From Muribaculaceae bacterium (GTDB lineage: Bacteria > Bacteroidota > Bacteroidia > Bacteroidales > Muribaculaceae), in NCBI GenBank assembly GCA_017619935.1, contig JAFZRJ010000020.1, positions 2,633 to 66,632 on the forward strand: a DNA stretch of 64,000 nucleotides. Direction: 5' to 3'. Shown piece after piece: positions 24,633-36,205 of the stretch. Below the pieces are notes generated by a model. It saw only the letters and a list, made by a program, of their open reading frames with translations. It made no database searches and was not told the origin of the DNA. Every line of letters starts with the position of its first letter. Within the stretch, counting starts at the first letter, position 1. The position numbers and the translations under genes are program-made.

Positions 24633-24911
24633 ATGAAACTGTTGTTGCTTGTCATCTTGTTCATCATCTTCTTTCCTATCGTGAAGATGTGGATGCTCAT
24701 GCGTCGTGCCCGGCGCAACGTGGAAGATATTTTCAACCGCACGCGCCAATACGAACAAGAGGTCGCTGCCGACGAAAAACGCTTCCCAAAAGGGGTGGGC
24801 GAGTATGCCGACTACGAGGAGGTGCGGGGCGTGTCGCGCCCTGAAACGGAGGCATCTGGCCCCATTGAGCATGAAGAACAAGTGGTGGATGCCGATTTTG
24901 AGGAAATATAG
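24633..24911 (+). CDS. DUF4834-like small membrane protein
   Basis: N-terminal TM; GEYADYEEV and DADFEEI motifs; usual position after pssA. Confidence 0.7.
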   Translation: MKLLLLVILFIIFFPIVKMWMLMRRARRNVEDIFNRTRQYEQEVAADEKRFPKGVGEYADYEEVRGVSRPETEASGPIEHEEQVVDADFEEI

Positions 24912-24985: not shown

Positions 24986-26425
24986 ATGAAAAGATTTTTA
25001 TATGGTTTGATACTTGCATTTGTGGTGGCAAGTATGTGGTCATGCGGTAGCTCGCCACTGGAGAAAGCGGTGAAGCAGGCGTTGGTGCAGCAAGACACTA
25101 CACAGGCTCGTTTTGATTCCATTTGTTCCATCATAAAAACTTACCCCGAACGCTATAAGGACTATCTCAATGAAGCCGGTGAGGTCGATGTCCCGGCTTT
25201 GGCCAAACTCATTGAGCAGGTTGGAGGCCAGTTGCGGCCCCCCATGTACTGGGATGTGACCCGCTATGGCCTGCAGCAACTGTCGCTCACCATCTATTTC
25301 GAGCGCAGTGGCTCCATGGTGCCTTACGATGCCCCGGGAGGAAGAGGACAACTCAAAAAAGTGGTGAATGACCTCATCAATTATTTCCCATCGACCGGCA
25401 ATGTGACCATCAATATTGTGAACGATGGCATCTATCCCTATCAGGGTACCATTGACCAGTTTCTTCAGGACCGCAACATCTATGCCAGCACGCAAGGTGT
25501 GGGCAATGCAGCCTTCACCGATTTTCAAAAGATTTTCAACGATATTCTCAAAGCGCAGCGGCCGGGCAACGTGAGCGTGCTGGTCACCGACCTGATTTAC
25601 TCGCCGGCCGACACTCGCGACGTGAGCGTGGAGAAAATATTCAATGAGGAAAACAGCTTGGCCACCCGCATTTTTAAGCAATATGAGGGCAAGTCCATCC
25701 TTGTGCATCAGTTCATGGGTGACTATCAAGGCAAGTATTATCCTTACAACAATCACCCGTTTGACTATCGTGGCCAGCGTCCGTTCTATGTGCTGGTGAT
25801 TGCCGACAGCAAAGTGATGGATGCCATGGCGGCCGATGCCGCCTATGCGTCGTTCATGACACCAACGAGTGTGCGTAACAGTTATCGTTTTAACCAAGCC
25901 GAGTCAATGGTTGATTATTGCGTGGTGCCCGACTGGAAGGACAACGCCGGCCGTTTCCGCGTGGATCATCGCGACGCCAGCCGCCTTACCAAGTGTGAAG
26001 GTGACAAGACTACGGGCGTGATGTGTTTCAGTGTAGCCGCCAACCTGAACGGATTGCAGAAACCCGCCGCATTCTTGGCCGAAGCAGCCAACTATCAATT
26101 GCGCAGTATCAGCGACTTCAAGTTGAAGGTGCAGCCCATTGAACAGAGCATGATCACGGGCAATAACCGCGCTTATCTGGAGGGAAAGACCCATCTGCTC
26201 ACCCTCACCGGCAAACTCACTGAACCTCGTGACGAAATTGTGATTTCGCTGGCCAATGAATTCCCAGCTTGGATTGAGCAATCGACGGCGCAATCCGACA
26301 CCAATCCCAATGCATCAGGTTTCTCTACCACCACATTGGGCTTGAAAGAATTTTTGGGTGGCATTGCCAGTGCTTTCGGCACGGGTGGTAGCTACACCAC
26401 CATCAAACTCAAACTTGAACGATAG
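24986..26425 (+). CDS. vWA-like domain lipoprotein (tubulin-like operon gene 1)
   Basis: Lipobox SMWSC. MIDAS-like TIYFERSGSM...FTDF...VLVTD. Beta-rich C-terminal domain. Confidence 0.7.
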   Translation: MKRFLYGLILAFVVASMWSCGSSPLEKAVKQALVQQDTTQARFDSICSIIKTYPERYKDYLNEAGEVDVPALAKLIEQVGGQLRPPMYWDVTRYGLQQLSLTIYFERSGSMVPYDAPGGRGQLKKVVNDLINYFPSTGNVTINIVNDGIYPYQGTIDQFLQDRNIYASTQGVGNAAFTDFQKIFNDILKAQRPGNVSVLVTDLIYSPADTRDVSVEKIFNEENSLATRIFKQYEGKSILVHQFMGDYQGKYYPYNNHPFDYRGQRPFYVLVIADSKVMDAMAADAAYASFMTPTSVRNSYRFNQAESMVDYCVVPDWKDNAGRFRVDHRDASRLTKCEGDKTTGVMCFSVAANLNGLQKPAAFLAEAANYQLRSISDFKLKVQPIEQSMITGNNRAYLEGKTHLLTLTGKLTEPRDEIVISLANEFPAWIEQSTAQSDTNPNASGFSTTTLGLKEFLGGIASAFGTGGSYTTIKLKLER

Positions 26426-26474
26426 GAATTATCCTTGCAAGTAACCAACGTTATCAATTAACAACCTGCTTGAT

Positions 26475-26924
26475 ATGAAAAAACAACATTTAGTCTATCT
26501 GATTATAGGTATCGTGGCCACGGTGCTGTTCTACATCTTCCGTGTGGAGGCCTATGAGAGTATTTACTCGGTGGCTGGTTACAGCGATCAGTTGTATAAT
26601 TTGGGACTGTATGACATCATCCCGCTCATCACCATTGCTGTGGCGTGGGTTATGGCAGGAATTTACTATTATGCCATCAACTCGGTGCGGTTCGACCGTT
26701 GGTACCACTGGCTGGTGATGTTGGCCTTGGTGGTGGTGTTGGCTCCAGTAGTGGGTTATCTGGTGAACAGTCGCATCTTTGATGAGAATGGACTGACCTA
26801 TGTGGCCGAATCACTCACCTTTGAGTTGGTGAACATAATGTGGGCTGCAGTGCTATTTGTTGTGGCGTCATTCTCTATGCGTTGGTGGAGCACCAACTGC
26901 CACCATACTCCCATTCCGCAATAG
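26475..26924 (+). CDS. 4-TM inner membrane protein (operon gene 2)
   Basis: Four hydrophobic segments; C-terminal RWWSTNC. Confidence 0.75.
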   Translation: MKKQHLVYLIIGIVATVLFYIFRVEAYESIYSVAGYSDQLYNLGLYDIIPLITIAVAWVMAGIYYYAINSVRFDRWYHWLVMLALVVVLAPVVGYLVNSRIFDENGLTYVAESLTFELVNIMWAAVLFVVASFSMRWWSTNCHHTPIPQ

Positions 26925-27006
26925 GAGAAGGCCAGTGGTTGATTTTGAAATTTGAATGAAACAATCATGGCGGTTTCGATGAATTCCGCCTCATATAAAG
27001 AATAAT

Positions 27007-28521
27007 ATGCGTTTATTTTTGTTAGCAATAGGAGGTACAGGTTCACGCGTGCTCAAGTCGCTGCTGATGCTCTCGGCGGCGGGTGTGCGTCCTGTGGATG
27101 AGGACGGACGGCCTGTGCCCAACCTCGAAATTGTGCCGGTCATCATTGACCCGCATAAGAGCAACGAAGACCTCAAGCGTACTGAGGCCCTGCTCACCAA
27201 CTACCGTTCGATACGCAATCGCTTGTATGGTAATGAGGTGAATGTGGATGGCTTCTTTGCCAACCGCATCGTCACGTTGCGTGAAATCATGAGCGACAGT
27301 TCCATCCAACTCAATGACACCTTCATTTTCAACTTGAGCGCCGTTGAACGCGAGAAGTTCCGCGATTTCATTGGATATGACACCATGAACGAAGCCAACC
27401 AGGCGCTCACTTCGCTATTGTTTGCCGACTATCAGTTGGAAAACAGGATGAACATCGGCTTCGTGGGGTCGCCCAACATCGGTAGTGTGGCATTGAACGA
27501 AATCAAGGACAGTAACGAGTTCAAGGCGCTTGCCAATGTGTTCAACGCCGGAGACCGCATCTTCTTCATCAGTTCCATTTTCGGTGGTACAGGTGCGGCC
27601 GGATTCCCCATTATGGTGAAAAATTTGCGCCAGGCCAGCAATCTCGACATCAACAACCGCGATGTGTTGCGTCGCGCGCCGATAGGTGGCATCACCGTGC
27701 TTCCTTATTTCAACATTGAGCACAACGATGACCATCGCATCGACAAGGCCGATTTCATCGTCAAAACCCAAAGCGCCCTCTACTATTACAAAGAGACGCT
27801 TACCGGTGCCAACGACAGTGAGTTGAACGCCATCTTCTATGTGGGCGACCAGGAAGTGTCTAAACCATACGTCTATGATCCAGGCGAGTTTGGCCAACGC
27901 AACCGTGCCCACCTCATCGAGATGGTGGCCGCGCTGGCTCCGCTCAAGTTTGCTGGCATTGCCGACAGCCGCCTGACCGACCAGAATGGTTTCCCTATGC
28001 CAACGATGGCATTTGAATTCGGTTTGGAGAAAGACGTGCGCGACGTTGATTTCCTCGCCTTCGGTCCCAGCACCCGTCGCCTCATCTACGAACCGCTGGT
28101 GCGGTTCCACCTGTTGTTCCTTTTCTTGCGTACAGGATTGAGAGGCATGATAGGGCAGGGCTTTACCGAGGACGCGCCCAAACTGAAGAGCGACTTCCTC
28201 ACATCGCAGTTCTATCGCACACTCACCGACCAGTTCATGCGAGGTTATGTGGATTGGTTGAGCGAGATGTATGACAACAACCGCAGTGTGCAGTTGTTTA
28301 ACATGGGCGAGAACGACATGAGCAATGCCATTCACCATGTGCATACGCGCAAGACTTTGTTGGGGCGTAAGACTGTGGACAACAACACGTTCAAGGCTGA
28401 AATGAACAAACTGAGCCGTGATGCCAAGTACAGCACCCACACGGTGGAGTACAAACTGCTCGACCTGTTTAACCGCGCCGCCACCACCATTATCAGCGAC
28501 CGTTACGAGAACATCAACTAA
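27007..28521 (+). CDS. Divergent tubulin/FtsZ-like GTPase (Tubulin_2-like family)
   Basis: T1 loop AIGGTGSRV, T3-like GFVGSPNIG and tubulin signature SSIFGGTGAAG. No signal peptide. Confidence 0.85.
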   Translation: MRLFLLAIGGTGSRVLKSLLMLSAAGVRPVDEDGRPVPNLEIVPVIIDPHKSNEDLKRTEALLTNYRSIRNRLYGNEVNVDGFFANRIVTLREIMSDSSIQLNDTFIFNLSAVEREKFRDFIGYDTMNEANQALTSLLFADYQLENRMNIGFVGSPNIGSVALNEIKDSNEFKALANVFNAGDRIFFISSIFGGTGAAGFPIMVKNLRQASNLDINNRDVLRRAPIGGITVLPYFNIEHNDDHRIDKADFIVKTQSALYYYKETLTGANDSELNAIFYVGDQEVSKPYVYDPGEFGQRNRAHLIEMVAALAPLKFAGIADSRLTDQNGFPMPTMAFEFGLEKDVRDVDFLAFGPSTRRLIYEPLVRFHLLFLFLRTGLRGMIGQGFTEDAPKLKSDFLTSQFYRTLTDQFMRGYVDWLSEMYDNNRSVQLFNMGENDMSNAIHHVHTRKTLLGRKTVDNNTFKAEMNKLSRDAKYSTHTVEYKLLDLFNRAATTIISDRYENIN

Positions 28522-28533
28522 CAAGAGATAATA

Positions 28534-29802
28534 ATGAGCAACATACTTTCATATAGCAATAACCAACTTGCGATTAATTATGAAAGCCTGGTTAATCAGA
28601 TTCGTAATGTAGGCAAAGCGTTACGACAAGATGCTCATTTGATTATTAATAGGAATATTACAGTTCGGGCATGGTTGACAGGTTGCTATATCGTAGAATA
28701 TGAGCAACGAGGAAACGACAGGGCTAAGTATGGCGATAATTTGCTTCAAAATTTGTCAAAGAGTTTGGGGGGCAAGAATTATAGTGCCACCAATCTGCGC
28801 AGTTTCCGGTTGTTTTATGCTTATTACCCAGAGCTGTTTCCCATTATTGGTAACTATTTGTTTGAGCGGTTTGGTCATGGCGAAATCACAGAAAAAATGT
28901 CGGATTTCCTTCCTGCCGATATTCAGCAGTCACTGACTGCTAAATTACAGGAAAACTCAAATCAGCAGTCAGTGGCTGCTAAATTTGAATTAGAAACCAA
29001 ACTGCCACAAGGGGCAACCATTTCTTCGGATGGTTTTGCCATGATGTTGCCTGATGGAAGCGTGAAGGCTGTTCCGCAAATGTTATTTGACAGGCTCTCA
29101 TTCACGCATTTTGTTCAATTAATACACATTGAGGACCCATTGCAACGAGCCTTTTATGCTATTGAGGCGATGCGTGGTCCTTGGAGTGTGAGAGAGTTGC
29201 AACGGCAGATTGACACTAATTATTTTACGCGGAGTGGCTGGAGTAAAAAGCCCGAATTGTTGAGCAAGCAAGTTAATGCGATTGCAGAACGACCTACATT
29301 TGAACAAGATATCAAGTCACCGTATTTTTTCGAATTTTTGGGATTGTCATCCAAAGATGTCATTGATGAAAACGACTTGCAAGCAGCGATTGTTTCTCAT
29401 CTAAAAGAATTTATCTTGGAACTTGGCATGGGCTTTTGCCTTGAAGAAGAGCAAAAGAAACTATTGATTGATGACAGATATTATAAAGCCGATTTGGTTT
29501 TTTACCATCGTATTCTGAAATGTCATTGCATAGTGGAATTAAAGGCTCATAGACTGTGCCATGCCGACATTGCCCAACTTAACTTATACATTAATTATTA
29601 TCGCAAACACTATATGCAACCAGATGACAATCCTCCAGTGGGTTTGTTACTTTGCACAGAATATGGACAAGAGATGGTTAAATATCTTGCGCCCTTTGTT
29701 GACCCGCAACTATTTGTCGCAAGATATGAATTGCAGCTTCCTGATAAGGACAAAATTCGAGATTTCTTGTTGCAAGAAAATGGGAATTATCGTGGATGCT
29801 GA
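28534..29802 (+). CDS. YhcG/DUF1016 family PD-(D/E)XK nuclease-domain protein
   Basis: GCYIVEYEQRGNDRAKYG, WSVRELQRQI, KSPYFFEFLGL, FILELGMGF, DLVFYHRILKCHCIVELK and QLNLY. AT-rich. Confidence 0.9.
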   Translation: MSNILSYSNNQLAINYESLVNQIRNVGKALRQDAHLIINRNITVRAWLTGCYIVEYEQRGNDRAKYGDNLLQNLSKSLGGKNYSATNLRSFRLFYAYYPELFPIIGNYLFERFGHGEITEKMSDFLPADIQQSLTAKLQENSNQQSVAAKFELETKLPQGATISSDGFAMMLPDGSVKAVPQMLFDRLSFTHFVQLIHIEDPLQRAFYAIEAMRGPWSVRELQRQIDTNYFTRSGWSKKPELLSKQVNAIAERPTFEQDIKSPYFFEFLGLSSKDVIDENDLQAAIVSHLKEFILELGMGFCLEEEQKKLLIDDRYYKADLVFYHRILKCHCIVELKAHRLCHADIAQLNLYINYYRKHYMQPDDNPPVGLLLCTEYGQEMVKYLAPFVDPQLFVARYELQLPDKDKIRDFLLQENGNYRGC

Positions 29803-29908
29803 TGCGATATGTATGTAATTCTGATGATTTAAATAAAGTGCTTTAATGCTTCAATTATAAATCGTTTATACTAACTGTTATGAGCAACATACTTTCATAT
29901 AGCAATAA
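28534..29908 (+). mobile_element. Putative inserted cassette bounded by exact 29-bp direct repeats (28534-28562 and 29880-29908)
   Basis: ATGAGCAACATACTTTCATATAGCAATAA occurs at both positions; the intervening DNA is AT-rich. Confidence 0.65.
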
Positions 29909-32900
29909 GACGGCCCACACGGGCGACGAGGACTGGATTGCCGTTGAGCCTTATACCGACGATGACATCCAGCGCATCAAGGACCCCGATGGAGGTCTGT
30001 CACGCAACCCCCGCACGGCGATTCCCAGTCCGTTTGCACAACTGGACTTGGTCAAAAACGCTTTTACGGCACTGAGCAACCCCTATTTGCGTGGTGCCGC
30101 CATGAATGAGCGTCTGGTGTCGAACGCGCTAGACGTGGCGCAGTTGTTGTTTGACTTCGAAAACCACAAGGATTACTTGCGGTTGGTGAGGTGGAACCGC
30201 GACGAGCAGTTGGCTCAACTCAAGGCCAGCGATCAGCACCGCCTTTACGGCGAGACGTTGGAACTGTTCCTCACCGCCGACAAAGTGTATAACTTTGATG
30301 ACCTGCACGACTGGTACATTCTGCTGTGGGACAGTCTGGTGATAGGCGGCACATCGCCGGCCTCGCTGGTGATGGCGGCTCCTGTGAGCGTACCCATTGA
30401 GGCCATCAAAGTGGAGCAGGGGGTGCCTTTGTTCTCGACCGACCGGCCGCTGTGGCAACGTGATGAGGAGTTTGTCTATTATATGTATCTATTGTTCAAT
30501 GCCTATCCCGTGTTGCGCGAGAAGGTGGGCATGGTCTATAGCTACATGCTGCACAACTTGGAATACCTGCGCCGAGAGCGGCCCGATTTGTACCGTCGCA
30601 TCACTGAGGTAATACCCAATCCTTCGGCGCTCGACCGCGAACGTGCCGCTACCGTCCTGGAAACGCTGGAGCATACCTACGACCGCTTTACCGGCACTGC
30701 CGATGTGAGCGTTTTGGGCGCGCGTTTCTACCACAAGCGCGTGTCGGACATCCGCACCAGCGCCGGCGAGAGCGACTTCGTCATTCAACCCACCATGCCG
30801 CAGCCTGCGGGCAAGACCTTGCCACTGGTGTTGCGGTCGGGGTTCAATGGCAGCGTGGAGCACTACCGCTATATCGACAAGGAGTGGGACAGCGCCACCG
30901 AAGTGCTGGCAGGGACGGTGCCCATGGACCAACGCAAGTTGCCCGACACTAGCATCCAGTATCCATTCCTCACCACCGCCGACCTGCTTGCCGAAACACT
31001 GTTGCGTGTGAGCAACGCCATCGACAGCAACCACTTCTTCAACGGCAATCTCAAGAGCAAGGACTTGGAGCCTAGCCGTGGTTATTTGTTGCCACTCAAG
31101 CCCGAGTTTTTCCGTTGGTTCACCGCCGATGATCTTAAAGGCCATGTGGTGGGTCGCAATATGCTCGACATAGAAGAAAATAGCGACGGCAGTGTGCTTG
31201 TCACCTTGCGCATCCCCGTTAAGAAGCGCTATATAGAACTTACACGTCGTTATTTCCCGACATCGGACCACACCTGGACCTTCGACGAGCGTCGTGGCAC
31301 GGGTCGTGTGATAGACGTGATCATGAACACGGCGGTGTTCCCGTTTGTGCGTACCGAGCGCAATGACGACTACACGGTGCAACTGTTCTCCATGTTGGGC
31401 GACGGCACCGCTTCGTTGCGATTCTTGCGTAACGGTGGTGATACCAGCACCATTCAGGTGACGCAGAAACAGCGCGCCCACACGGTCTATACCACTGAAT
31501 ACTACGATGTGAACGGCACATGGGACTATGCTGAGGCTACCGTGCACAACGACTTGGGTACGTTCACCGGGATTATACTTCCCATGTGGAAGCATTACGC
31601 CCCATCGTCCAAAGAGTTGATTTTCGCCGTTGACTTCGGAACGACCAACACCCATGTAGAGTGGGCCGAACGTGGCCAAATGAGCGAAACACTCACATTC
31701 ACCGACGGCAGCGAACAGGTGCTTGTGGCATCCCTGCTCAAGCAGGGCGGGTTGGACATTGCCGAGCAGTTGCAACGCATTGAGTTCCTTCCGCACGACA
31801 TCGACAAGGTGTATGGTTTCCCCTTGCGCTCGGCGTTGGCTAACAATACGGGCAGCGACGGTGGCCGCCGCTTGTTCCATGATGTGAACATCCCCTTCCT
31901 TTATGAACGCAAGTTCTTTGATGGTTACGATGTGACCACCGGACTGAAGTGGATGGGCGACACCACGCTGGCAAAGGAATTCCTGCGCGAACTCACGCTG
32001 CTCATCAAGGCGAAGGCGTTGCTGGAGAATGTGGACTTGCGTAATGTGCAGGTCGTCTATTTCTATCCTGTGAGTATGGGTGGCAGTGACCGTCGCAAGT
32101 TGCAGGACACTTGGGAGGAACTGTATCGCACCTACATTGGTGACGATGTGGACCGCTTGCAGGCTTATCCCGAATCGGTGGCTCCCGCTTATTACTACAA
32201 GAGCGCCGACGTCACGGGCAGCAGTTATGTGTCCATCGACATCGGCGGTGGTACCAGCGATACGGTCATCTATCAGCCCACGGCCGACGGCATGCGCAGT
32301 GAGCCGGTGGCGATTTCCTCGTTCCGTTTCGCCGGCAATGCCATTTTCGGTGATGGTTTCGGCGACCGTGATGCCGACAACAACCCCTTGTTGCAGCACT
32401 ATATGCGCTATTTCCAGCAGATCATTGAGAATGACCGTTCCACGGGCATTTCCTATCTCACCAGCATCATGCAGGACATCCAGCGCGGCAAGCGCAGTGA
32501 GGACATCAACGCTTTCTTGTTCTCGATTGAGAATGTGGAGGAATTGCGCGATTTGCGCGAGATAGACCGCAACCTGTATAGCTACAACGTGCTGCTGCGC
32601 AATGACGGACAACGCAAGTTGGTGTTCATGTACTTCTATGCCGCCATTATCTATTACATCGCACGCGCCATGCAGGCCAAGGGCTATGTGATGCCCAAGC
32701 AGATTTACTTCAGCGGCACGGGTTCGAAAATACTGAACATTCTGGGTTCGCTCAGCCAGGTTACCGAGTTCACTCAGATTATCATTGAAAAAGTCTTCGG
32801 CAAACCCTATAGTGAGCGCTTCGAAATAAAGATTGAGACCGAATGTCCAAAGCAGATTACTTGTCGTGGTGGCATCAAGCTCGAGAACCAACGCCTTGAT

Positions 32901-33329
32901 GGCCGTGCCGACACCAGCCTGTACACTGCTCGCAATGTGAACGCGTTGAAATATTGCTACTCTATGTTGGGTCCCGACCAACTCACTTACGGCGATATGA
33001 ACGATGCGGCCAAGCGTGACGCACTGGTGGAACAGGTCAACCAGTTTAACCAGTTCTTCATCGGCTTGTGTGACAAGGTAATCAAGGATGAATTCGGTAT
33101 TGAAAACGGTGTGTTCCAACTCTTCTGCGATGTGTTGGGCGATGATGTCGCCAACTACCTCACCGCCGGTATCAATGCCTTCCTGCAAGGTCGTTACGAG
33201 GCGAACGATGTGGTTGAAGACGTGCCCTTCTTCTATCCCGTGGTGGGTGTTATCCGCTACAATTTGCTCAAGAATCTCACCAACGAGGTCATCAGCAAGT
33301 ACAAGTCAAGAGAAGGTTTCATCAATTAA
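29880..33329 (+). CDS. Large actin/Hsp70/FtsA-fold ATPase-like protein (1149 aa)
   Basis: Phosphate-1 FAVDFGTTNT, connect-1 PESVAP, phosphate-2 SIDIGGGTSD and adenosine-like FSGTGSK. About 580-aa N-terminal region of unknown fold. Confidence 0.8.
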   Translation: MSNILSYSNKTAHTGDEDWIAVEPYTDDDIQRIKDPDGGLSRNPRTAIPSPFAQLDLVKNAFTALSNPYLRGAAMNERLVSNALDVAQLLFDFENHKDYLRLVRWNRDEQLAQLKASDQHRLYGETLELFLTADKVYNFDDLHDWYILLWDSLVIGGTSPASLVMAAPVSVPIEAIKVEQGVPLFSTDRPLWQRDEEFVYYMYLLFNAYPVLREKVGMVYSYMLHNLEYLRRERPDLYRRITEVIPNPSALDRERAATVLETLEHTYDRFTGTADVSVLGARFYHKRVSDIRTSAGESDFVIQPTMPQPAGKTLPLVLRSGFNGSVEHYRYIDKEWDSATEVLAGTVPMDQRKLPDTSIQYPFLTTADLLAETLLRVSNAIDSNHFFNGNLKSKDLEPSRGYLLPLKPEFFRWFTADDLKGHVVGRNMLDIEENSDGSVLVTLRIPVKKRYIELTRRYFPTSDHTWTFDERRGTGRVIDVIMNTAVFPFVRTERNDDYTVQLFSMLGDGTASLRFLRNGGDTSTIQVTQKQRAHTVYTTEYYDVNGTWDYAEATVHNDLGTFTGIILPMWKHYAPSSKELIFAVDFGTTNTHVEWAERGQMSETLTFTDGSEQVLVASLLKQGGLDIAEQLQRIEFLPHDIDKVYGFPLRSALANNTGSDGGRRLFHDVNIPFLYERKFFDGYDVTTGLKWMGDTTLAKEFLRELTLLIKAKALLENVDLRNVQVVYFYPVSMGGSDRRKLQDTWEELYRTYIGDDVDRLQAYPESVAPAYYYKSADVTGSSYVSIDIGGGTSDTVIYQPTADGMRSEPVAISSFRFAGNAIFGDGFGDRDADNNPLLQHYMRYFQQIIENDRSTGISYLTSIMQDIQRGKRSEDINAFLFSIENVEELRDLREIDRNLYSYNVLLRNDGQRKLVFMYFYAAIIYYIARAMQAKGYVMPKQIYFSGTGSKILNILGSLSQVTEFTQIIIEKVFGKPYSERFEIKIETECPKQITCRGGIKLENQRLDGRADTSLYTARNVNALKYCYSMLGPDQLTYGDMNDAAKRDALVEQVNQFNQFFIGLCDKVIKDEFGIENGVFQLFCDVLGDDVANYLTAGINAFLQGRYEANDVVEDVPFFYPVVGVIRYNLLKNLTNEVISKYKSREGFIN

Positions 33330-33341
33330 TCAATAGTTGAG

Positions 33342-34145
33342 ATGAAAAAGACTGCATTATTGGGAATGTGCGTCGCCGTGGCCATGTGCGCCGCAGCGCA
33401 AGACAGTATCCAGTGGGTGAGCGACACCATGTCGATGGCCGACAGCGTGACAGTGGAAGAAATTCCCAGTGTGACGGCTACCGCTCCCCAGGAACCGGTG
33501 ATGGAACAGGCTCCGGAAAAATCATCGAGCGGACTCGGATGGCTGGTCATGGCGTGTGGCTTGACGGCGTTGCTGGCTGTGGGCGCCGGGGTGATGGCGT
33601 TTATGGCTCGTCGCGAGGTGGCCGAACTGCATGAGGCGATGCGGGCGGCTCTGGAGCAAACCAACGACAACATGCGTAAGTTGGCCATGGATGGAGCTCG
33701 TGAAATGAATGCCTTGAAGTCCCGTCAGTCCCGAACGCAATACGAACCGGCGCGTCGCTCGACCATAGGCGTTGATGCTGGCGAAACTCGCGTCAAGAGG
33801 CAAGAGACTAAGGCCAAGCCGGCAGGACCACACATCGTTTATCTGGCCAAACCCGATACGCAGGACTGCTTCACTCGGCCCAGCGAACATTTTGAACTGG
33901 GTAATTCGCTTTTCGAACTGACCACGGCCGATGAAGTGCGCGGAACGTTTGTGGTGATTGACAATGCCGATGTGCATCGGTTTGCACTGATGATGCCCAC
34001 TGACAATCTCACACGGGCTTGTACGGGCGAGAACATCCAACTCTCCACCGGCAAGACGCGCATTGTGACCGACCAGCCCGGTGAAGCCGTCTTTGAGCAA
34101 GGTGTGTGGCGCATCACCCGCAAGGCGGTGATTCACTATGTGTAG
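33342..34145 (+). CDS. Signal peptide + single-pass TM + coiled-coil protein with beta-rich C-terminal domain
   Basis: MKKTALLG...AAAQ signal, TM GLGWLVMACGLTALLAVGAGVMAFMA, helical linker, and C-terminal IVTDQPGEAVFEQGVWRITRKAVIHY. Confidence 0.75.
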   Translation: MKKTALLGMCVAVAMCAAAQDSIQWVSDTMSMADSVTVEEIPSVTATAPQEPVMEQAPEKSSSGLGWLVMACGLTALLAVGAGVMAFMARREVAELHEAMRAALEQTNDNMRKLAMDGAREMNALKSRQSRTQYEPARRSTIGVDAGETRVKRQETKAKPAGPHIVYLAKPDTQDCFTRPSEHFELGNSLFELTTADEVRGTFVVIDNADVHRFALMMPTDNLTRACTGENIQLSTGKTRIVTDQPGEAVFEQGVWRITRKAVIHYV

Positions 34146-34178
34146 AGCCGTTGGTTATATCCTCATGATGGATGGAAT

Positions 34179-34649
34179 ATGAAATGGACTTGTGGTCATT
34201 GTGGCAAGGCGCTCGATGTTTCCGATGAGCAACTCTATGAAACGCGAGGTGTAATTGTGTGTCCGCAATGCTTGTCCAGTGACACGGTGCCAGGCTATCA
34301 GCGCCGGAAGCGGACCGCCGCTGCCGATACACCTTCATCAGCCAAGCAAGTCACCACTCCACCCGTTGCCGAGCAGGAAAGAGAGCGCGTGACACCCCCG
34401 CCAAAGAGAAAACCATCAACACCGCCCCCATATCGAAAAAAAATCAGTTTCGTGGAAGATTCTACCTCTCGCGGCTCTACTGAGAACCGCACGAAGCCGT
34501 CAGTCGGCAAGAAAAAGAGAAAAAAGAAGAAAAACAGTGGGCTGCTGGTCCCCCAAACCCCATTGGGCTGCTTGTGGCGCACTCTGGTGTTCACGGCCAT
34601 TCTTCTGGCTGTGGTCACTTTTGTGGGTTATGTGCTCGATGTGGTGTAA
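34179..34649 (+). CDS. Zinc-ribbon protein with Pro/Lys-rich linker and C-terminal TM anchor
   Basis: CGHC...CPQC, PPPK repeats, KKKRKKKK and a terminal hydrophobic helix. Confidence 0.75.
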   Translation: MKWTCGHCGKALDVSDEQLYETRGVIVCPQCLSSDTVPGYQRRKRTAAADTPSSAKQVTTPPVAEQERERVTPPPKRKPSTPPPYRKKISFVEDSTSRGSTENRTKPSVGKKKRKKKKNSGLLVPQTPLGCLWRTLVFTAILLAVVTFVGYVLDVV

Positions 34650-34984: not shown

Positions 34985-35016
34985 CCCCTACCTGAATGGT
35001 AAGGTGTGGATAAAAA

Positions 35017-35053
35017 AACAAGCAATACGGGGGTGAGCCCTGTATTGCTTGTT
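35017..35053 (-). terminator. Intrinsic terminator of the ECF sigma operon
   Basis: AACAAGCAATACGGG...CCCTGTATTGCTTGTT stem with an A-run on the left. Confidence 0.7.
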
Positions 35054-35088
35054 GTGTTTGGTTGATTTATGGTTGTATTATGGCTGTC

Positions 35089-35712
35089 TTAGTGTTGGTC
35101 GTCGTCGATGGTGATGGCGTTGATTTGTGCGATGACGTCGTCGTTGGTGCGCTGCATCTTGTGGAAGATGATGAAGGCGATGACGATGCCGATAATGCCT
35201 CCTACAATGCCTCCGAAGAATCCGCCGGTAGCGAAGCCATTCAGAAAGTCGTGTTCGAATGAGCCTGCCACCCGTTTTAGGTCAATCAGGAACAGGATCA
35301 CCCACACAATGACCGCGATGAGCGACAGGAAGAATGACCAAGCACGTAGTTTCTTCATACGCACCAGTTTGCGACTGGCTTCGACCAGGTTGCCGCTCAG
35401 CAGCTCGTTCTTGTCCACGTGGTTGATATAGTAGTCGGCAGTGACATCCACAACCAGCATCACAGCCAAGTAGGCAAAGACAAACCATGACAGGCCCAGC
35501 ATGTGGGTCATGGCGCCAAAGAGCAGGAGCAGGAACGGCACTAGGCAGATTTCGAACCAGATGTAGTTCTTGATCCACGACATTCGTTTGTTCATGGCCT
35601 GCCGCATGAGCCGCTCGTTGATAATCTCTTGCTTGTCGAGTTTTTCTTTGAGCAGAGACATTTGGCTGCGCATCTGCTCAAGTTCGATAGTATTGATATT
35701 CAAATCTTCCAT
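35089..35712 (-). CDS. Membrane protein co-transcribed with ECF sigma (putative anti-sigma)
   Basis: N-terminal helix ELEQMRSQMSLLKEKL plus 4 TM; immediately downstream of the sigma gene. Confidence 0.65.
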   Translation of the reverse strand: MEDLNINTIELEQMRSQMSLLKEKLDKQEIINERLMRQAMNKRMSWIKNYIWFEICLVPFLLLLFGAMTHMLGLSWFVFAYLAVMLVVDVTADYYINHVDKNELLSGNLVEASRKLVRMKKLRAWSFFLSLIAVIVWVILFLIDLKRVAGSFEHDFLNGFATGGFFGGIVGGIIGIVIAFIIFHKMQRTNDDVIAQINAITIDDDQH

Positions 35713-35725
35713 GGTTATTTCGTGT

Positions 35726-36205
35726 TTATGAGTTGGACATGTTTTTGAGTTGTTCTTTAATTCGGTAGAGGCGTACGCCCACATTCTTGGTAGTGATGCC
35801 GACGATGGCTGCTATTTCGTCGTAGCTCATGTTCTCGAGCCAAAGCAGCACGATGGCACGGTCGAAAGGCTGTAGCCGTCCGATGCGCTCACGCAGCATC
35901 TGCACTTGTCTGGAATCGTTGTCCTGGTCATCGAAGAGGTCGATATCCATGGTGAGAGGCACCGACGCCGATTTCTTTTTCTTCCGTTCGCTGGTGATGC
36001 AGGTGTTCAGTGCCACCCGCCAGATCCAAGTACGCAATTCGCTGCGTCCTTTGAATGAGCTCATTCCGCGCCACAAGTTCACAAGTGTTTCTTGAAAAAG
36101 GTCGTTGACCTCATCGCTGTCGTTGGAGAACATATAGCACACGCTGTAGATGGTGCTTTTGTGCTCCTTGACCATTCGTTCAAATTCTTGTTCGTTGGCT
36201 TCCAT
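35726..36205 (-). CDS. ECF sigma-70 factor
   Basis: DLFQE, TWIWRVALNTCI (region 2) and LENMSYDEIAAIVGI (region 4). Confidence 0.92.
   Translation of the reverse strand: MEANEQEFERMVKEHKSTIYSVCYMFSNDSDEVNDLFQETLVNLWRGMSSFKGRSELRTWIWRVALNTCITSERKKKKSASVPLTMDIDLFDDQDNDSRQVQMLRERIGRLQPFDRAIVLLWLENMSYDEIAAIVGITTKNVGVRLYRIKEQLKNMSNS

Follow-up and report, generated by a model that had tools for sequence, protein, structure and literature searches.

FtsZ and FtsA, a tubulin-fold guanosine triphosphatase (GTPase) and an actin-fold adenosine triphosphatase (ATPase), are encoded by adjacent genes and act together at the membrane; FtsZ binds FtsA via its C-terminal tail and polymerises through its T7 motif. 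More divergent tubulin-like proteins have been described computationally. FtsZl1, a protein of about 900–1400 amino acids (aa) with a coiled coil, occurs with vWA, GTPase and OmpA neighbours in operons for which membrane remodelling has been proposed (Makarova and Koonin, 2010; PMC2875224), and Kaur et al. (2020; PMC7159879) assigned tubulin and HSP70 proteins to non-overlapping themes, of firmicutes and actinobacteria, that rely on DO-GTPase, GAP1 and FNIII proteins. In Zorya, which combines the ZorAB proton motor with soluble effectors, the motor has been suggested to detect disturbance of the envelope and to bring in the effectors (Hu et al., 2024; PMC11946911). The present analysis concerns a window of 64,000 nucleotides (nt) from a Muribaculaceae bacterium (assembly GCA_017619935.1, contig JAFZRJ010000020.1, positions 2,633 to 66,632; coordinates below are those of the window), in which 24986–34649 holds a six-gene cassette encoding a lipoprotein, a protein with four transmembrane (TM) segments, a tubulin-like protein, a giant actin-fold ATPase, a membrane adaptor and a Zn-ribbon protein. 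The cassette is real, conserved and uncharacterised: none of its six genes matches any family above cut-off in Pfam, NCBIfam or PADLOC, and no description of it was found in full-text literature searches; subscription papers lay outside these searches, and the source-data supplements of PMC7159879 could list such neighbourhoods.

The tubulin-like protein, the actin-fold ATPase and their predicted complex

The third gene (27007–28521, + strand) encodes a predicted tubulin-fold GTP-binding protein of 504 aa, whose AlphaFold 2 (AF2) model has a predicted local distance difference test (pLDDT) score of 94.6. Residues 1–339 of this model match CetZ in VIA (Z 16.1, root-mean-square deviation (rmsd) 3.1, 202 residues aligned), followed by OdinTubulin, FtsZ and PhuZ (Z 15.5–15.1); the top 17 VIA rows all belong to the tubulin family (Z 16.1–10.1), with SDRs below at 9.3, and the Foldseek rows shown are all tubulin or FtsZ. 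With a modelled Rossmann-like GTPase domain and the glycine loops T1 (GGTG, 9–12) and T4 (GGTGAAG, 193–199), the protein is assigned to the Tubulin/FtsZ superfamily. T1, T3, T4 and T5 are conserved, and the T1 GGTG, T3 GFxGxPNxG, T4 GGTGAAG, a PY after strand 5 and the QxNxAHxxE that starts H7 are nearly invariant among homologues; GTP binding is likely on the strength of these motifs. A profile search of the PDB with this protein gave a best match of E 0.034, and hhalign against the genome's own FtsZ covered T4–T5 only (probability 0.4%).

The protein does not carry the pair of features that define canonical FtsZ, tubulin, CetZ and TubZ, namely a T7 motif (NxDxxD/E) and a C-terminal activation domain. 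A motif of the form N.D..[DE] lies within residues 300–365 in only 1 of 147 alignment rows, the T7 position being taken from residue ranges rather than coordinates, and is thus not conserved. The segment after H7 varies between 11 and 30 aa, the structural alignment to CetZ stops at CetZ residue 236 of 342, and that alignment shows no canonical C-terminal activation domain; the C-terminal third (approximately 340–504) is helical, with a longest model helix of 23 residues. Since T7 is not conserved and the canonical C-terminal domain is missing, self-activated polymerisation of the FtsZ type is unlikely from established tubulin biochemistry, and the description of the system as cytoskeleton-like, given in an earlier note made from this DNA's letters, finds no support in the tubulin. 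A canonical ftsA-ftsZ pair is present elsewhere in the window's genome. Behind ftsA at G000:C3 14600–17300 (L165, L166) come two consecutive ftsZ-like genes, of 468 and 383 aa; the latter has a variant T7-region sequence.

The 1149-aa protein (29880–33329, + strand) comprises an N-terminal region (approximately 10–570) and an actin/Hsp70-fold ATPase domain (577–1017), and its AF2 model has a pLDDT of 88.5. It bears DFGTTNT at 585–591, ES at 765–766 and DIGGGTSD at 787–794, and D585, G587, E765, D787, G789, G790, D794 and G946 are invariant across 71 rows. Together the phosphate-1, connect-1, phosphate-2 and adenosine motifs and the modelled two-lobed fold at 577–1017 place it among actin/Hsp70 (ASKHA) proteins. 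Fold searches made with the whole model returned matches covering 577–1017 only, among them ParM (Z 12.0, rmsd 4.1, 270 aligned), MreB (11.7), Ssz1 (11.4), BiP (11.2) and BeeR (11.1), with Hsp110 inside this range (12.0–11.1) and PilM (10.9) and FtsA (10.8) among the tied matches; because filament formers and Hsp70s tie in Z, the ASKHA subfamily cannot be named. The nucleotide-binding motifs and both fold classes put forward in the earlier note were thus found in the translations and in the models. The first 50 residues are poorly ordered when the ATPase is modelled alone, yet P49 is invariant, which suggests that they form a partner-binding arm.

A candidate for that partner is the tubulin-like protein. 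When the tubulin was modelled with ATPase residues 10–470 in ESMFold2, the complex scored 0.83 (runs 0.83, 0.85 and 0.79), and the best of three controls scored 0.01. The score mark used is reached by 116 of 157 solved pairs and by 2 of 215 mismatched pairs, counts that are only a rough guide here, as the complex run used our own alignments. The predicted complex holds about 240 contacts, on which the runs agree in at least 85%, and the partner pLDDT is at least 82. ATPase residues 13–169 are predicted to bind tubulin, with 13–60 and 103–169 set against tubulin 122–143, 154–168 (T3/H3), H4, H5, H7 and 333–356. Interface columns are more conserved than the remainder (0.60 versus 0.43; 0.50 versus 0.41), the tubulin interface columns overlapping with nucleotide loops. 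PDB searches with both proteins returned no solved complex of this kind. The model supports tubulin–ATPase binding and does not show it.

The pairing is also written into gene structure. All 62 long homologues matched by the tubulin profile (1013–2890 aa) are tubulin-then-ATPase fusions that match both profiles, and 60 of them span more than 800 ATPase profile positions; a further fusion lies in genome G926 (locus L144). On a FastTree tree of 45 rows (10 fused representatives, 35 split), which has some long branches, the fused or split state changes 7 times, so fusion or fission appears to have occurred repeatedly, about seven times. Where the genes are split they mostly lie less than 30 nt apart. 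Given the predicted complex, these fusions and the missing T7, the working unit is very probably a heterodimer of two nucleoside triphosphatases (NTPases), and the pair is likely not a microtubule-like filament. The view that the two NTPases belong together is therefore strengthened, by both the model and the fusions. Such a unit would be a direct, domain-to-domain tubulin–actin pair fused several times in evolution, and would give a concrete, soluble complex to the Tubulin_2-like proteins, a group whose function has been an open question since 2010.

Conservation, envelope partners and neighbouring genes

Co-occurrence of the six genes is far beyond chance. At 80 close loci that carry the actin-fold protein, the tubulin gene is found at 74, the 4-TM gene at 73, the lipoprotein and adaptor genes at 72 each and the Zn-ribbon gene at 62, many of the misses being contig ends; the genes stand in the same order, which is preserved in about 72 of the 80. 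Close relatives of the 1149-aa protein are in rumen Muribaculaceae-type genome records. For a less redundant view, the window was pooled with 12 of these close loci, 92 metagenome or viral loci and 47 genome stretches; 86 with tubulins less than 80% identical were kept, the fusion locus L144 being set aside. In this set, 77 of the 79 tubulin loci that extend 1 kb or more downstream also have the ATPase gene (the misses are L147 and L152). The reading of the genes as one conserved unit is supported. The lipoprotein and 4-TM genes occur in 65 of the 76 loci with room upstream and the adaptor gene in 45 of the 64 with room; the divergent lipoproteins and 4-TM proteins of a distant subfamily partly escape the profiles. 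Judged by approximate counting against L001, the ratios of nonsynonymous to synonymous substitution (dN/dS) are about 0.02 for the tubulin, 0.04 for the ATPase, 0.04 for the lipoprotein and 0.19 for the adaptor, and the five genes so compared are under purifying selection (about 0.02–0.19), the tubulin having the lowest ratio.

The family reaches from rumen and gut Bacteroidales to cyanobacteria. Relatives of the tubulin-like protein in phmmer number 1643 clusters at E 0.001 and 1074 at E 1e-10, and the 147-row tubulin profile matches 7 of 400 genomes of the phylum, 29 of 400 of the order and 35 of 150 of the family. All seven genomes of the window's genus and all six of another genus carry the cassette. 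On cyanobacterial plasmids, homologues of the lipoprotein, tubulin and ATPase stand in the same arrangement, for which annotation offers one label, ‘tubulin-like domain’; one such cassette, on a Picosynechococcus plasmid (L260, 1–6414), adjoins an alternate F1F0 ATPase operon and phosphonate transporter genes. Twelve IMG/VR contigs hold copies, and some copies adjoin integrase, relaxase or Toprim genes. At L248–L251, L256, L257, L141 and L162 such genes lie beside cassettes that also bear ZorAB-like genes and that sit on integrative mobile elements of gut Bacteroidales, some of them filed as viral contigs. A second cassette in a genome of the window's genus (L164; G881:C14, 11496–18119) has two tandem ATPase-family ORFs (open reading frames; 1223 and 909 aa), followed by an adaptor and then an Asp protease.

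The partners of the pair are envelope proteins. By hydropathy the 149-aa protein has four TM segments, the 267-aa protein a signal and one TM segment, the 156-aa protein one C-terminal TM segment and the two NTPases none, in agreement with the topologies first proposed. The lipoprotein (24986–26425, + strand, 479 aa from an ATG) has a lipobox whose Cys20 is kept in 96% of 45 homologues and a vWA-like domain with a pattern resembling a metal-ion-dependent adhesion site (MIDAS), ExSxS...T...D, in which E106 (87%), S108 (100%), S110 (98%) and D202 (100%) are conserved in the same set. From this motif we infer a vWA fold; Pfam VWA_2 matches 1 of the 45 at E 0.0038, below cut-off significance, and a search against PDB sequences gave no match up to E 10. 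Of the vWA/MIDAS-like lipoprotein originally described, the lipobox and the motif are borne out, and the fold rests on the motif. The 4-TM protein (26475–26924, + strand) has a conserved C-terminal RWWS.NC..TP motif and belongs to no known family; a MotA/ZorA-like identity was considered and rejected. The type I membrane adaptor (33342–34145, + strand) consists of a signal, a variable outer part, a TM segment at 68–86, a helical stalk and a conserved C-terminal beta-type domain in which C227, G247 and W256 are invariant. Its homologues range from 159 to 1049 aa, with outer domains that include Ig-like and WG repeats in relatives, and its profile drew only coiled-coil and TM noise from the PDB. 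The last gene (34179–34649, + strand; 156 aa) is lineage-specific and encodes the Zn-ribbon protein (Pfam Zn_ribbon_4, E 0.00025, below cut-off); it takes the position held by ZorAB-like genes in other lineages. The proposal of an envelope-anchored unit is thus supported by its membrane and lipoprotein members.

Those ZorAB-like genes follow the adaptor in relatives. A ZorA-like gene is present in 26 and a ZorB-like gene in 25 of the 64 loci with at least 7.5 kb downstream, as counted with profiles built from the same loci. The ZorA-like TM protein carries a long helical tail, the ZorB-like protein has an OmpA domain, and both match the PADLOC ZorA and ZorB models weakly. The best full-length PDB matches of the ZorB-like protein are the ZorB chains 8vvn (E 6.5e-13) and 8qyd (E 3.8e-9), ahead of MotB, and the TM part of the ZorA-like protein matches ZorA (8vvn/8qyk), the coiled-coil matches of its tail being uninformative. 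The invariant Asp14 of the ZorB-like protein aligns with ZorB Asp26, whose D26N mutant is a non-functional motor (PMC11946911). Among genomes with a ZorB-like gene the tubulin gene is also present in 12 of 17, a partly circular count, as 9 of the 12 built the profile; among the remaining 8 ZorB-like genomes the tubulin is present in 3 and absent from 5, with a contig end in 3 of the latter. A quick, midpoint-rooted IQ-TREE tree of 87 tubulins places the window in a clade of 18 rows (Shimodaira–Hasegawa-like approximate likelihood ratio test 99) that contains 13 Zn-ribbon loci and no ZorAB loci and is nested among ZorAB-bearing branches. Because of this nesting, the simplest reading would be that the motor was lost or replaced in the window's lineage. 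Other downstream genes encode trypsin and Asp proteases, SNase, a non-specific endonuclease, TerD, PP2C and DO-GTPase, and the proteases and nucleases mostly start with signal- or lipoprotein-like N-termini. In a distant subfamily (L123, L124, L153, L154) TerD genes and an OmpA-domain protein come after the cassette; PP2C follows it at L145 and DO-GTPase at L163, and together these loci make a link to Ter-type stress systems.

Seven ORFs on the + strand fill the interval, six of them the co-oriented, closely spaced genes (gaps in order of 49, 82, 12, the insert, 12 and 33 nt) and the seventh a YhcG gene rightly discounted as an insert from the start. The low-GC segment (28534–29879, + strand, 1346 nt; GC 39% against 53–54% in flanking genes), carrying a YhcG/PDDEXK gene of 422 aa at 28534–29802 (Pfam 143 bits; PADLOC PDC-S02), is a polymorphic passenger outside the cassette. 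It is bounded by a perfect 29-nt direct repeat (28534–28562 and 29880–29908, + strand), of which there are only two copies genome-wide; the left copy repeats the opening 29 nt of the actin-fold gene and the right copy is that opening itself, so that the repeat restores the ATPase gene start and both neighbouring frames are intact. An empty allele, 28533 joined directly to 29880, is present in contigs from two of four DNA runs compared, and YhcG occurs at 1 of the 80 close loci. The segment showed no integrase. The tubulin–ATPase junction is an insertion hotspot, with unrelated, mostly low-GC inserts in 7 of 74 close loci; junction inserts were noted at window 28534–29879, L002 8739–10000, L003 6566–10000, L010, L030, L031, L076, L051 and L061, and the inserts of L002 and L003 hold another gene, again bordered by the duplicated start of the ATPase gene.

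Around the cassette, a strong hairpin with T/A runs on both sides (35012–35058), likely a terminator, separates it from a convergent pair resembling an ECF (extracytoplasmic function) sigma factor and anti-sigma factor (35089–36205, − strand), and a promoter and terminator scan of the window was at chance level (18 versus 13.9; 18 versus 12.9). Upstream, a 92-aa ORF with weak DUF4834 likeness (24633–24911) lies between pssA and the cassette and is beside the cassette in 3 of the 80 loci. As for the setting reported earlier, downstream of psd-pssA and not in a dcw cluster, the second half stood, ftsA-ftsZ lying elsewhere, and the first was dropped as a link, psd being found at only 3 of the 80 loci.

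Proposed function and its rivals

Taken together, the data allow a model in which the cassette is a membrane-anchored machine, with the heterodimer at its core, for sensing and responding to envelope damage such as phage attack; we put its probability at roughly 0.45. Its foundation is the two folds, their intact nucleotide-binding motifs and strong purifying selection. In the predicted complex, with the fusions in support, the tubulin would be gripped by the N-terminal arm and first domain of the ATPase, which would cover its insert helices, the T3/H3 switch region, H4, H5 and H7. Without T7, the tubulin would not activate itself in a filament and could instead be the subunit that switches between GTP and GDP and so gates the ATPase. 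Tethering of the pair at the inner membrane would fall to the 4-TM protein and the type I adaptor, possibly with the Zn-ribbon protein; the MIDAS lipoprotein and the variable outer domain of the adaptor may read the state of the envelope, and the triggered ATPase would power assembly or remodelling on a local scale. For the widespread form, trigger and effectors would come from a ZorAB-like proton motor and from proteases or nucleases, as in Zorya, and in the window's lineage the Zn-ribbon membrane protein would replace the motor module; there the output may be local repair of membrane or envelope rather than destruction of DNA. The motor-bearing lineages would read as defence against phage or envelope damage, and among the functions listed in the earlier note, from membrane remodelling to anti-phage defence, it is defence or envelope sensing that gains most from the ZorAB-like neighbours in relatives. 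The patchy spread across genomes, and the copies near integrase, relaxase or Toprim genes, on IMG/VR contigs and on cyanobacterial plasmids, also speak for this reading.

Several observations weigh against this model. The six window genes have no PADLOC match, and the cassette is fixed in whole genera among housekeeping neighbours, a stability that most defence systems do not reach. No cassette match was found in 50,697 annotated phage records. No ZorA- or ZorB-like gene of this subfamily is present in the window or was found in its genome, which is 66% complete; among genomes of the same genus one of five has such a gene, unlinked to the cassette within the 20 kb examined, and at L266, L267, L268 and L269 the ZorAB-like pair stands without the tubulin–actin cassette. 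No effector gene is common to all loci, and three parts of the model, namely the switch, the tethering to the membrane and the sensing, are inferences. A bolder form of the idea, held tentatively and on the doubtful side of even, is a new class of immune or envelope-repair system in which the T7-less tubulin and the giant actin-fold ATPase form an obligate two-nucleotide switch, often fused, that would assemble at the inner membrane on a signal from the MIDAS lipoprotein and would be joined in many lineages to a Zorya-type proton motor. If this were true, tubulin and actin folds would jointly serve defence and not shape or division.

The genus-wide stability and strong purifying selection would suit a second cytoskeleton for membrane remodelling, the line taken in the earlier note and by Makarova and Koonin (2010) for FtsZl1 operons, in which the actin-fold domain polymerises on the inner membrane under regulation by the bound tubulin and shapes vesicles, protrusions or cell contacts during normal growth. 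The filament formers ParM, MreB and BeeR among the fold matches, and the membrane and lipoprotein partners, agree with such a role; however, the non-filament Hsp70-type proteins Ssz1 and BiP tie with them, the tubulin has neither a conserved T7 nor the canonical C-terminal domain, a canonical ftsA-ftsZ is present elsewhere in the genome, just 7 of 400 phylum genomes have the cassette, and protease, nuclease and ZorAB-like neighbours are unexpected for a shape system, so that this explanation is unlikely. Further down the scale, and improbable in our estimation, stands an energised trans-envelope platform for assembly or export, comparable to Tol/Ton or PilM systems, in which a non-polymerising ATPase–GTPase pair is the cytoplasmic base, a MotA/MotB-type pair gives force, and adhesion or maintenance is served by building or positioning the lipoprotein, adaptor and proteases in the envelope. 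The tied fold matches include PilM and FtsA, the signal- and lipoprotein-like N-termini of the downstream proteases and nucleases point to action outside the cytoplasm, and the Ig-like and WG repeats of the adaptor's outer domains fit as well, but the motor pair is nearer ZorAB than MotAB and is missing from 38–39 of 64 loci with room, the window included, and the cassette has no conserved outer-membrane channel or pilin. That the window's copy is a relic or chance cluster, split by the 1346-nt insert between its NTPase genes and already without motor genes, is very improbable and largely refuted, as the 29-nt repeat leaves both frames whole, dN/dS is 0.02–0.19 and order is kept in about 72 of 80 close loci.

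Relation to described systems

Returning to the proposed envelope-damage machine, its parts recall several described systems. Tubulin-fold and actin-fold genes stand side by side as in FtsZ-FtsA; here, however, the predicted contact lies between the GTPase domain and an additional N-terminal domain on the ATPase, there is no conserved T7, and the genes lie outside dcw. The likeness to FtsZl1/PF13809 includes a divergent N-terminal tubulin GTPase domain, an unclear T6–T7 region, a vWA neighbour (in the window by motif), membrane proteins, OmpA-family or GTPase neighbours in some cases and presence beside a canonical FtsZ. Against Pfam Tubulin_2 (PF13809) the window protein scores 13.2 bits, below the cut-off of 27, which some homologues pass (Gloeothece, 40.8 bits; 17–25% of members in near Atlas clusters). 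The differences from FtsZl1 lie in the length of the window protein, 504 aa without the extended coiled coil, with none of the 62 long homologues of FtsZl1 type, and in the constant actin-fold partner of 1100–1300 aa, which is absent from the description in the text of PMC2875224. The earlier note had given FtsA/Hsp70-like neighbours as established there; ‘FtsA’, ‘Hsp70’ and ‘MreB’ do not occur in that paper's main text, and one DnaK row stands in its supplements (PMC2875224). FtsZl2, as characterised by an intact T7, proteobacterial distribution and no conserved neighbours, does not fit the window tubulin.

The membrane-near operons of Kaur et al. (2020) likewise encode tubulin-domain, vWA and HSP70-fold proteins, and a part in biological conflict has been proposed for them (PMC7159879); a DO-GTPase is found downstream of one distant cassette (L163). 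The window's genes, however, include no DO-GTPase, GAP1 or FNIII by Pfam, and the ATPase is not a DnaK-type chaperone. SrfB (PF07520, srfABC) resembles the ATPase in its large size and in having an actin-like domain at the C-terminus (Atlas feature score 0.89, which serves only as a lead), but the likeness is limited to about 88 columns around phosphate-2 (hhalign probability 92%) and no SrfA or SrfC genes were noted; orthology was rejected, the window ATPase having no PF07520 match. With Zorya, relatives of the cassette share a ZorA-like TM protein with a helical tail and a ZorB-like OmpA-domain protein with a conserved Asp, whereas the soluble partners are a tubulin–actin pair, the window's locus is without zorA or zorB, and none of 19 downstream proteins scanned against PADLOC, part of the flanking genes, is a ZorC/D/E-type effector. 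By their defining features, FtsZl1, FtsZl2, SrfABC and Zorya thus leave the cassette unmatched. For Tubulin_2-like proteins, the link to Zorya-type motors may be a route to a new envelope-sensing output. The cassette would work like the predicted membrane-near NTPase systems and, in relatives, like the sensor of Zorya, yet it lacks defining features of each.

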